This document shows positions 5,024 to 7,324 of a stretch of DNA of 64,000 bases, piece after piece. The notes beneath the pieces are model-generated. The model searched no databases and was not told the origin of the DNA. It saw nothing but the letters and a program-made list of their open reading frames with translations. The position numbers were made by a program, and so were the translations under genes. This DNA is from Escherichia phage vB_Eco_OMNI12: the sequence record OL362041.1, one strand, 5' to 3'. The number at the start of each line of letters is the position of its first letter. Position 1 is the stretch's first letter.

Positions 5024-5587
5024 TTATTTACCTAGTTTACTTATTATAGCTTCTGCAGCAGCTTTTAGCTTAGATGCAGTGTTAATACGATTTTTAATTT
5101 CAGTATACGCATCGCCAAGAACATCAAGGCTATCAGAATAAACACTTACACTATTGCGTTCGCTATTTGAAATAGAACCTTTAGTTTTGCGGTCAAAATC
5201 GGTGTACACGTCTTGAAGATCGCGGGCTGCCTTCTTTGCATCATCCAATGCATCAAGAGCTTTATTCAAAGCATTAACGTATTTTTTAGTGTCGAACATA
5301 TTCTTAGAAATTTTAACAGGTGCGCGTTCAGGAGTAGCTAACACAGATTTAGGAACCTGAGCGCCAGATGCCAATTTCTTAGAAATTTTGAAAAATGCTT
5401 TATTGAATTTATTTTCTTGACTCATTGTAAAAGAACTATTATCGATGTTGTACATTTCAATAGCTTTAGCTTTCCACTTAAGAAAATCGCCGCGGTCTTT
5501 TGGGTCCAATTGGAAGAATACTTTAGTAAGATCTGCTTCAGATGGTAATTTTGCTGCTTCGGTTAAAAATTCGGCATAGGTTTTCAT
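5024..5587 (-). CDS. Internal-protein-like capsid-packaged protein (N-terminal CTS-like MKTYAEFLTE)
   Basis: 187 aa; N-terminus fits T4 internal-protein capsid targeting consensus; RBS AAGGA upstream. Confidence 0.6.
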   Translation of the reverse strand: MKTYAEFLTEAAKLPSEADLTKVFFQLDPKDRGDFLKWKAKAIEMYNIDNSSFTMSQENKFNKAFFKISKKLASGAQVPKSVLATPERAPVKISKNMFDTKKYVNALNKALDALDDAKKAARDLQDVYTDFDRKTKGSISNSERNSVSVYSDSLDVLGDAYTEIKNRINTASKLKAAAEAIISKLGK

Positions 5588-5675
5588 TTAAAATCCTTGA
5601 AATAATTTATCGGTTGGTTATTAATTATTTATTACTTTGTTACTATCCGTAACAGCGTTATCCGAGTGATTCAAA

Positions 5676-5704
5676 CTAAAAAGCCCCAACCTTTCGGTCG
5701 GGGC
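5676..5704 (-). terminator. Intrinsic terminator (GCCCCGACC-GAAA-GGUUGGGGC followed by UUUUU)
   Basis: Sequence aaaaagccccaacctttcggtcggggctaag; identical copy at 6235-6261. Confidence 0.7.
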
Positions 5705-5712
5705 TAAGAATG

Positions 5713-6186
5713 TCATTTGATTTGTTTAGCAGACCAAATGCGGTCTTTAATAATTTTTTGGATGTCTTCAACATACTCAAGAGAGTGAACATGTGGATTA
5801 TCTTTGAAACTATAAGCACGGGCTAACTTTTGGCCTTCGGTTTTGATTACTAAAAGCTCTTTAAGGATAGCTTCATATTTAGCGATAATTCCTTTAACGA
5901 TATTTTTTTCTTGTGCCGCTTTAGGATCTGCTTTAGGAGCAGGTTTACCCGAAGCCTTTGCAAAAGCAGCGCCAGTAGCAACTAAACTTTTCCAGGCCAT
6001 ACTAACTGCATTTCCCGTAAATCCTTCCGCTTTCATGTCGCGTGCAAACTGGAATCGCGATTCATCAGAAGCATCTTTATAGGAATATTTACCCGCGGCA
6101 ATGGCAGCTTTTGCAACAGCTTGAATTTCGGTGCTAGATGCTTCATTTAACACCGCTTCATTTAAAAATTGAGTATATGATTTCAT
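5713..6186 (-). CDS. Internal-protein-like capsid-packaged protein (N-terminal CTS-like MKSYTQFLNE)
   Basis: ORF track 5713..6363 runs through the terminator and tRNA-like region; true start taken at internal ATG with RBS AGGAAA. Confidence 0.6.
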   Translation of the reverse strand: MKSYTQFLNEAVLNEASSTEIQAVAKAAIAAGKYSYKDASDESRFQFARDMKAEGFTGNAVSMAWKSLVATGAAFAKASGKPAPKADPKAAQEKNIVKGIIAKYEAILKELLVIKTEGQKLARAYSFKDNPHVHSLEYVEDIQKIIKDRIWSAKQIK

Positions 6187-6234
6187 CTTATTTCCTGTTT
6201 TAATTTGTAGATTTAATATACTAATATTTATACC

Positions 6235-6261
6235 AAAAAGCCCCAACCTTTCGGTCGGGGC
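6235..6261 (-). terminator. Intrinsic terminator, second identical copy
   Basis: Identical hairpin plus U-run; ends the tRNA/stable-RNA transcription unit. Confidence 0.7.
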
Positions 6262-6265
6262 TAAG

Positions 6266-6578
6266 CCTTGCGGCAACCTTGTCGGGGTTCCACCTGCTAA
6301 GACAAGTGTTTGTACGAAACGCCGGGATTCGAACCCGGTTATTAAGTAGTTGACGCTACTCAATATTTTTAAAAGGCCATATCTCGACCATATCCGAACG
6401 TTCCGTCAAAAACGCTACTCGGCTTACGGCAAAGATATTTCCTCGAATCGATAATTCGGTGCGCCGTTTCTGCTGTGGTGTAAGAGGGCATCAACAAATC
6501 ATAAAGATTTATTAACGCAATTCCTTACCCAGGGAACATCAGTCCGACGACTTACCGGTAGCGACCCGGTTTCTTGTC
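6266..6578 (-). ncRNA. Candidate small stable RNA region (position of T4 species 1 / species 2 RNAs), includes tRNA-like element ~6314-6405
   Basis: Non-coding stretch between tRNA-Arg and terminator; T-arm-like CCGGGTTCGAATCCCGG with pairing acceptor-like ends CGGAACG / CGTTTCG. Confidence 0.4.
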
Positions 6579-6655
<77 letters not shown>

Positions 6656-6658
6656 TAA

Positions 6659-7324
6659 TTAAAATTTCATTTTTCGACCTTTAAACCATCCTTCTGGAAT
6701 TGGGTCAGTTTTCTTAATACGTTTAGAAACTTTTTCATCTAATGAATGAATCCACATCATACCAAATTGGGAATTCTTTTCACCTTGTTGGTGTTTATTT
6801 TTGGCGTGAGATTCTTTCATTTTATTAATAGTTTCAAGAGTATGGGTCTTACCCAAGAAAGATTTAATATTTAAAAATTTCTCTCTATACTTAGGATTAT
6901 CCCAAAGCTGTTTAAACCTTTCTGAACCCATTTTACGATATTTTTCTTTAAGGTCTGGGTCGTTCTCAAATCTGGTTTTAAAAGCAGCAGCCCCTTTTAA
7001 GGAAGCTTCTTTCTTTTTATCCAAATATTCTTTAGTGTTTAAATGGTCCCAACCACCTTCACCACCTAATTTCAAATTATAAACATCAGGGCGCTTTAAA
7101 AACTCTTCAGTCACAATATTCTTTTCTGACTCAAACATAGAGGTTTTATCGTCAAAGAACTCTAATATTTCTTTAGAGAAATTTTCTATACCATACTTGT
7201 CTTGGGCTCTTTTTAATAATTTACCAGAACCCATATATCCATCATCTAAATTTTCGGTAGAATGAGCGCCTATATAGATTTTATTATTAATTTTATTTGT
7301 TATTTTATAAGTGTAATGGAACAT
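6659..7324 (-). CDS. segB: GIY-YIG homing endonuclease (SegB-like) inside the tRNA cluster
   Basis: 221 aa; N-terminal YKITNKINNKIYIGAH...GYMGSG GIY-YIG motif; same position as T4 segB. Confidence 0.8.
   Translation of the reverse strand: MFHYTYKITNKINNKIYIGAHSTENLDDGYMGSGKLLKRAQDKYGIENFSKEILEFFDDKTSMFESEKNIVTEEFLKRPDVYNLKLGGEGGWDHLNTKEYLDKKKEASLKGAAAFKTRFENDPDLKEKYRKMGSERFKQLWDNPKYREKFLNIKSFLGKTHTLETINKMKESHAKNKHQQGEKNSQFGMMWIHSLDEKVSKRIKKTDPIPEGWFKGRKMKF

Follow-up and report, generated by a model that had tools for sequence, protein, structure and literature searches.

What lies between the last tRNA gene of a T4-like phage and the terminator of its tRNA operon? The question is raised by the 64-kb window analysed here, 64,000 nucleotides of Escherichia phage vB_Eco_OMNI12 (OL362041.1). 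Its minus strand carries eight tRNA genes (Gln, Leu, Gly, Pro, Ser, Thr, a CAU tRNA and, after a gap, Arg-UCU), as detected by ARAGORN and Rfam. The final true tRNA in the operon is tRNA-Arg (anticodon UCU; 6579-6655, minus strand; called by ARAGORN, with an Rfam tRNA score of 69 bits). Downstream of it, a terminator scan placed the intrinsic terminator of the tRNA/stable-RNA operon at 6233-6262 on the same strand, with a stem-loop at 6239-6262 that consists of a 10-bp stem closed by a GAAA loop and is followed by a U-run. An earlier note, made from the sequence alone, had put the interval between tRNA-Arg and the terminator at ~310 nt and described it as lacking a credible ORF, containing a tRNA-like element and corresponding in position to two stable RNAs of phage T4. 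The interval length holds (about 316 nt), whereas the ~70-nt insert that the note had assigned to the tRNA-like element is 60 nt.

The source phage is a Tequatrovirus, that is, a T4-like phage. A megablast search with positions 6180-6670 matched 773 phage records, nearly all of them from Tequatrovirus, with vB_EcoM_SYGD1 (98.4% identity) and RB32/RB33 (97.4%) at the top. Upstream of the interval, a 221-aa ORF at 6659-7324 (minus strand) occupies the site where the matching records annotate the segB homing endonuclease. The T4 operon was reportedly mapped by Broida and Abelson in 1985, and the sequence of species I RNA and its in-vitro cleavage by RNase III are said to go back to Paddock, Abelson and colleagues in the 1970s. 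The presumed transcript of the operon is one precursor of ~1.75 kb, which ends past the species I RNA (PMC2330249).

We aligned the interval to the reference annotations of T4 (NC_000866; rnaC = T4s001, rnaD = T4s002) and RB33 (rnaD = RB33_s002). Judged by these alignments, the interval consists of orthologues of T4 rnaD (species 2 RNA) and rnaC (species 1 RNA), both of them already known elements. In T4, rnaD (119 nt) is annotated one base past tRNA-Arg and rnaC (139 nt) six bases further, and RB33, RB3 and others annotate the pair at aligned positions. The window shows the same arrangement: the gene order on the minus strand is tRNA-Arg, rnaD, rnaC, trailer and terminator. The ~120-nt rnaD (6458-6577) begins 1-2 nt past the tRNA-Arg CCA; it is separated by the spacer GAAUUA (6452-6457) from the 139-nt, tRNA-like rnaC (6313-6451), and a conserved 50-nt 3' trailer (6263-6312) leads from rnaC to the terminator. 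The rnaD ends were projected from the T4 annotation and are good to +/- 1-2 nt, the RB33 annotation giving 6457-6577; the rnaC ends, placed by alignment to T4 and RB33, carry the same margin.

Over its full length, rnaC shares 138 of 139 positions with its T4 counterpart; for rnaD, the identity is ~92% to T4s002 and ~97% to RB33_s002. The proposal that the T4 species 1 and species 2 RNAs lie at this position is thus borne out, the two elements following tRNA-Arg in the order seen in T4 and having the same orientation to the tRNA cluster and segB. Substitutions relative to T4 are few: the window rnaD ends in CCG rather than CCA and has changes in its apical stem. The locus as a whole has a very different tRNA-Arg allele and an extra ORF past the terminator, as in RB32/RB33. 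A covariance model of rnaC built from 12 non-Tequatrovirus homologues returned a single match in the 64-kb window, which covers the element in full (6312-6451, minus strand; 135.4 bits, E = 2e-31). Since this model comes from other genera, the rnaC element is no chance feature. Taken jointly, the identity of the two RNAs, their architecture and a tRNA-type processing route have a probability of about 90% in our estimate, in which we infer the transcript ends, the modifications, the CCA status and the RNase P cleavage.

Neither RNA belongs to a catalogued family: Rfam 15, searched both at the gathering threshold and at E <= 10, yielded no family for rnaC or rnaD, only noise and T-arm fragments. 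Nor is there a conventional tRNA in positions 6266-6578, a check that the earlier note had named. ARAGORN made no call and no Rfam tRNA match was obtained there, and the consensus fold described below has no anticodon arm; the best alignment, to tRNA-Sec over 6314-6406, owed its score to the T arm and reached 17 bits, where the gathering threshold is 47 (E = 1.4). As for published work, T4 rnaC and rnaD have been classed as late RNAs, the late expression of rnaC being reported as validated by a Northern blot with an RNAC probe (PMC9697503, 2022). The literature that we found on rnaC/rnaD function holds only statements that it is unknown (PMC3014915, 2010), the primary papers of the 1970s-80s not being retrievable.

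Might the interval instead encode a small protein? In a mechanical sense ORFs do exist on its minus strand: a 42-aa ORF with a TTG start at 6369-6497, and a TTG-started extension of the downstream gene (5713..6363). Moreover, features labelled 'hypothetical protein' overlie rnaC/rnaD in many GenBank records. However, the 42-aa ORF has lost its start codon in several close relatives and is interrupted by an internal stop in T4, which agrees with the view that the interval holds no credible ORF. The extension starts at a TTG within rnaC and then crosses the trailer, the terminator and a copy of the late-promoter motif TATAAATA at 6225-6232. The true gene is 5713-6186 (minus strand), with its ATG at 6186 as in its homologue RB33_134 and a product that starts MKSYTQF, and the longer call had rightly been dismissed as an artefact. 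Substitutions in the interval track stem pairing and show no codon periodicity. We therefore give almost no credence to a protein made either from the 42-aa ORF or by N-terminal extension to 6363.

The fold of rnaC was derived with RNAalifold from 17 sequences that represent at least nine genera (Tequatrovirus, Gaprivervirus, Kagamiyamavirus, Moonvirus, Karamvirus, Kanagawavirus, Gelderlandvirus, Marfavirus and others). The consensus is a four-way junction with compensatory changes in 24 of its 39 pairs, and it is assembled from a terminal stem, an irregular arm of ~60 nt closed by AGG/CCU, an A-rich linker, a hairpin of 9-10 bp and a T arm. The irregular arm (6379-6438, minus strand, as are all rnaC and rnaD elements) is closed by AGG (6441-6443) with CCU (6374-6376) and ends in the apical loop UUGACG (6404-6409); 14 of the 15 pairs in its helices 3-6 show compensatory changes. 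The hairpin beside the T arm (6340-6365; helix 8) has the conserved loop CGUCAA (6350-6355) and compensatory changes in 7 of 9 pairs. The T arm itself, CCGGG/UUCGAAU/CCCGG, was found as previously described, at 6322-6338 and abutting CGUUUCG (6315-6321); pairing in its helix 9 is kept to 98.8% and includes one compensatory pair. The single-sequence minimum free energy (MFE) of the window rnaC is -50.2 kcal/mol (z = -4.6), and the corresponding structure is the same as the consensus.

The terminal stem resembles a tRNA acceptor stem. Its 5' strand, CGAUUCG (6444-6450), pairs with the 3' strand CGUUUCG (6315-6321) through five Watson-Crick pairs around a tandem U.U mismatch, and the 3' strand is followed by U (6314) and ACA, as read from the sequence and the homologue alignment. 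Across the homologues the consensus is 5' CGRUUCG with 3' CGUUYCG, in which the tandem U.U is invariant. All 17 sequences retain the five Watson-Crick pairs, the third of which is A-U in the three T4-type sequences and G-C in the remaining 14; this is the only covarying pair of the stem and corresponds to one or two evolutionary events. Pair probabilities for the stem in the window rnaC range from 0.79 to 0.97. Past the 3' strand, most lineages have U and then ACA, while the homologues of Klebsiella phages (Marfavirus-type) have U-CCA. As an acceptor/T-arm minihelix, then, rnaC has both a T arm and a terminal stem, and both are conserved, but the stem includes the tandem U.U, and T4-type RNAs have U-ACA at the 3' end. 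We conclude that rnaC is most plausibly read as a covariation-supported tRNA mimic, with an acceptor-like stem that abuts a T arm and with the ~60-nt irregular arm and the 9-10 bp hairpin apparently taking the place of the D and anticodon arms. In Kanagawavirus of the eclm type, the stem of the T arm is kept and the T loop is changed from UUCGAAU to UGCAUGC, which indicates that the canonical T-loop sequence is not universally required.

The two best-conserved loops of rnaC point to a further contact. UUGACG (6404-6409) is exactly complementary to CGUCAA (6350-6355), and the corresponding Marfavirus-type loops are UUGGCG and CGCCAA, a double change from A-U to G-C that keeps the pairing. This loop-loop helix (helix 7) is 100% paired. 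When it is included, standard pairs fill 97.3% of the cells of the rnaC alignment (n = 17), a value reached by none of 500 shuffles, and slid controls gave 38-48%. We propose that the two loops may form a kissing contact, and we put this forward as a proposal only because the double change is seen in a single lineage.

A different acceptor stem had been suggested for the tRNA-like element, formed by CGGAACG with CGUUUCG. Under that reading, the 3' two-thirds of rnaC would be a degenerate, class-II-like tRNA with an internal acceptor stem, and the first 45 nt would be a leader. On paper the pairing is possible, because CGGAACG (6399-6405), which sits inside the long irregular arm, can form seven pairs with CGUUUCG, extendable to eight, in the T4-type sequence. 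Annotation programs have also seen something of the kind: ARAGORN calls a 96-nt 'tRNA-Phe' on the 3' part of rnaC in phage Pet-CM3-4 (647-742 of the analysed segment), GenBank lists a 95-nt 'tRNA-Met' in PG7 (354-448 of the segment) and SonariX (201-295 of the segment), and the weak 17-bit alignment to tRNA-Sec covers the same part. However, this helix is kept to only 79.8% over the 17 homologues, shows no compensatory change and has its third pair broken in 12 of 17. The CGGAACG sequence is absent from half of the genera, where the same columns form a covarying hairpin instead. When the internal pairing is forced on the window sequence, the free energy is -36.9 rather than -50.2 kcal/mol, a cost of 13.3 kcal/mol, and its pair probability is ~0. 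In addition, the 'anticodons' that were called vary among the phages. An internal acceptor is accordingly very unlikely, and the conserved partner of CGUUUCG, as predicted from the alignment, is the 5' end of rnaC, CGAUUCG. The tRNA-like element as such stands; the mimic is the whole 139-nt RNA rather than its 3' two-thirds. The internal pairing is what fools tRNA finders into mis-calling rnaC in some genomes, and the 'tRNA-Met' of PG7 and SonariX and the 'tRNA-Phe' of Pet-CM3-4 are probably misannotated rnaC.

How does this architecture compare with those of known RNAs? As in tRNA (RF00005, clan CL00001), the T arm of rnaC abuts a terminal stem of seven positions, a discriminator-like U follows and the gene lies in tRNA arrays. 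Unlike tRNA, rnaC has neither a D arm nor an anticodon arm or 7-nt anticodon loop, has the tandem U.U and is 139 nt long. An acceptor-plus-T-arm module on a large non-tRNA body is likewise found in the tRNA-like domain of tmRNA and in the bacterial and phage Y RNAs of the YrlA type. In contrast to tmRNA, rnaC has no tag ORF or series of pseudoknots, its body being a pair of arms with complementary loops; ARAGORN called no tmRNA, and Rfam gave only a 10-bit tmRNA_permuted fragment on the T loop. No Rfam match to YrlA or another Y RNA was obtained even at E <= 10, and T4 is not known to have a Ro60/Rsr gene. Y RNAs of this kind are recognised by a GNCGAAN0-1G motif in the stem that binds Ro and by a Ro60/Rsr gene in the vicinity, and YrlA has been shown to be cleaved by RNase P, to receive CCA and to carry modifications of the tRNA type (PMC4201824).

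The second RNA has another shape. rnaD is predicted to form a conserved rod, made of a small 5' hairpin and a long hairpin that takes in the 3' end at its base; its MFE is -40.6 kcal/mol in the window sequence (z = -3.4). From the 5' end, the layout is a 7-nt tail, a 5-bp hairpin and a long irregular hairpin that carries a variable apical hairpin. The RNAalifold consensus of the 5' hairpin (6554-6570) is ACCGG, the invariant loop GUCGCUA and CCGGU, with the closing A-U changed to G-C in 3 of 15 homologues. In the long hairpin (6459-6551; from the fold prediction and homologues), the basal pairing of GUCGUCG (6545-6551) with CGGCG(C)AC (6459-6466) is invariant. The first ~45 nt and the last ~25 nt of rnaD are almost unchanged among homologues, the middle occurs in at least three unrelated versions (T4, T2 and SHP1 types), and the same architecture is nonetheless predicted in 15 of 15; the apical part (~6479-6530) varies in sequence and always forms a hairpin. 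Because the conserved stems are invariant, they give no covariation signal.

On inspection, no tRNA-like feature was seen in rnaD. We considered the 5' hairpin as a possible T arm, since its dimensions (5 bp, 7-nt loop) fit, and rejected it: the T-loop sequence is absent and the hairpin lies on the wrong side of the basal stem. The same hairpin read antisense, with a T-rich stretch after it, accounts for a terminator-like match on the plus strand at 6554-6570, which is no independent terminator.

A published adaptation experiment bears on the rod. All lines of phage BW-1 that were adapted to host ECOR34 convergently acquired a SNP in rnaD (PMC12685909). We mapped this SNP to nucleotide 76 of the 115-nt rnaD (record position 164264), where it is A>G on the RNA strand. 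It changes CUAUG to CUGUG, which is the T2 sequence, so that the apical hairpin CACAG/CUGUG regains a C-G pair; in the prediction, the MFE falls from -25.9 to -31.0 kcal/mol and the RNA is again folded like a rod. If the deposited genome is that of the ancestor, the SNP repairs a stem, and an intact rnaD rod would matter on at least one natural host.

We further examined where the two RNAs occur. Beyond Tequatrovirus, blastn in 'distant' mode detected rnaC homologues in Kagamiyamavirus EcS1, Moonvirus KM16 and NM4.3, Karamvirus Pet-CM3-4, PG7 and KaAlpha, Kanagawavirus IME523 and Kosakonia phage 305, Edwardsiella phage PEi20, Gelderlandvirus Melville, Gaprivervirus VR7, Marfavirus-type Klebsiella phages and Erwinia phage COW86c. 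In most of these other genera rnaC lies inside the tRNA array, typically as His-Ser-Trp-[rnaC]-Gly-Pro-Phe; it is found between tRNA-Trp and tRNA-Gly, or straight past tRNA-Phe or tRNA-Met. It starts there 4-7 nt past the CCA of the preceding tRNA, and spacers of 4-5 nt at this place are of the same kind as the rnaD/rnaC gap of the window. Within Tequatrovirus, rnaC is essentially identical in hundreds of genomes, whereas the adjoining tRNA-Arg and ORFs vary. Homologues of rnaD were found in Tequatrovirus, Mosigvirus, Gaprivervirus and Dhakavirus. In Dhakavirus (SHP1, dhaeg, MX01), rnaD is joined directly to the trailer (GAACACUUGCCUAGCAG...) and rnaC is precisely missing, with the same tRNA-Arg upstream and the terminator context kept, which indicates that rnaD and rnaC are separable modules.

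Outside phages, a pattern made of the 5' motif, the T arm and the 3' strand gave zero matches in 185,579 bacterial and archaeal genomes (GTDB), and a blastn search of all complete E. coli genomes gave no match. A scan of metagenomes with this pattern returned only contigs carrying a T4-type or Marfavirus-type rnaC, most of them ~167-171 kb in length. The IMG/VR and metagenome scans together led only to Tevenvirinae-like phages, apart from ~20 IMG/VR matches in GC-rich coding DNA that are due to chance. Both RNAs look phage-specific.

As to how the RNAs would be made, rnaD and rnaC are the final genes of the tRNA operon, ahead of the conserved trailer and the terminator, and host tRNA-maturation enzymes (RNase P, 3' exonucleases and possibly the CCA-adding enzyme) would cut both out of the polycistronic precursor. 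Such a release is suggested by the position of rnaC in tRNA arrays, 4-7 nt past a CCA, and by the U-CCA that some homologues encode. What they do once released is a more tentative matter. It is possible that rnaC and rnaD act as protein-binding mimics or decoys in a tRNA-centred conflict between phage and host, needed only in some hosts, and neither decode codons nor regulate by antisense. More specifically, and more doubtfully, the acceptor/T-arm module of rnaC would enter tRNA maturation or surveillance while its loop-locked body binds or titrates a specific host or phage protein, such as an enzyme that handles tRNAs or a defence nuclease that targets them. rnaD would determine host range in its own right, as a second factor besides rnaC, and would need an intact rod on certain natural E. 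coli hosts, as the SNP of the BW-1 lines on ECOR34 suggests.

T4 deletion mutants without the rnaC/rnaD region are reportedly viable on laboratory strains, so any function of the two RNAs would be conditional. Such viability, together with the lack of rnaC in some Tevenvirinae (Dhakavirus), could be taken to mean that both are functionless relics or tRNA pseudogenes in decay. We find this hardly credible, as compensatory substitutions preserve every rnaC helix across genera and rnaC stays near-identical in hundreds of Tequatrovirus genomes while its neighbours vary. The adaptive SNP in rnaD also speaks against decay (PMC12685909).

Alternatively, rnaC and rnaD could be trans-acting sRNAs whose conserved loops base-pair with phage or host mRNAs. 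This would fit with loops and linkers that are invariant beyond what pairing needs (GUCGCUA, UUGACG, CGUCAA, AAAAU), and both RNAs have been loosely called 'regulatory' (PMC9697503, PMC12685909). Yet the two best-conserved rnaC loops are mutually complementary and co-vary, so that their conservation is explained internally; blastn detected nothing similar or complementary in E. coli genomes, and there is no characterised trans-acting sRNA in T4 (PMC3014915). We regard this as unlikely, and are equally sceptical of a purely cis-acting role, in which the two elements would act within the tRNA operon on its processing or stability, as RNase P/RNase E punctuation or as a block to 3' exonucleases, with no role for the free RNAs. 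It is true that rnaC and rnaD are always within or appended to tRNA arrays and that, in the T4-type operon, they stand at the 3' end right before the terminator. To serve as a spacer, however, rnaC would have no need of a fold of 139 nt in which more than 20 pairs covary and which is near-invariant in Tequatrovirus, and rnaC and rnaD both accumulate as stable, discrete RNAs (PMC9697503). Dhakavirus, moreover, keeps rnaD and is precisely without rnaC past the same upstream tRNA-Arg.

The element itself is textbook T4 biology, and its occurrence in another T4-like genome is routine. rnaC and rnaD are nevertheless among the oldest known phage non-coding RNAs, described in the 1970s, and ~50 years later are still without a function or an Rfam family. 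What the present analysis adds is a corrected and covariation-tested architecture for rnaC, a conserved rod for rnaD, both amounting to a testable fold, and a tie between a published adaptive SNP and the repair of an rnaD stem. The corrected fold and the link to the SNP turn 'function unknown' into specific questions of mutation and host range, and the reading of these RNAs as mimics and host-range determinants, if true, would give two RNAs known since the 1970s their function.

Several observations concern the neighbouring sequences. The tRNA-Arg(UCU) gene (6579-6655) is a very different allele from T4 tRNA-Arg, with few columns conserved in a three-way alignment, and matches that of RB32/RB33; rnaD and rnaC, next to this divergent gene, are 92-99% identical. 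The D loop of this tRNA (AAUUGUAUA) is without the usual GG, and its T loop, UUAGAAU, has A at the usual place of C56, which suggests that a tertiary pair has been swapped.

The operon terminator is present in duplicate, at 5669-5708 and 6226-6265, the two 40-nt copies being 93% identical. Downstream of each is a small ORF of PHROG 2280, and these two paralogues (5713-6186 and 5024-5587, both minus strand) have similar N-termini, MKSYTQFLNEA and MKTYAEFLTEA. In T4 there is a 284-bp gap between rnaC and e.8 without an annotated gene, and the locus of the window looks like the tandem insertion of an ORF-plus-terminator cassette. The T4 late-promoter motif TATAAATA occurs in 24 copies in the whole window against 9.9 expected, a count reached by none of 100 shuffles, and its copy at 6225-6232 (minus strand) lies directly past the operon terminator, upstream of the ORF at 5713-6186.
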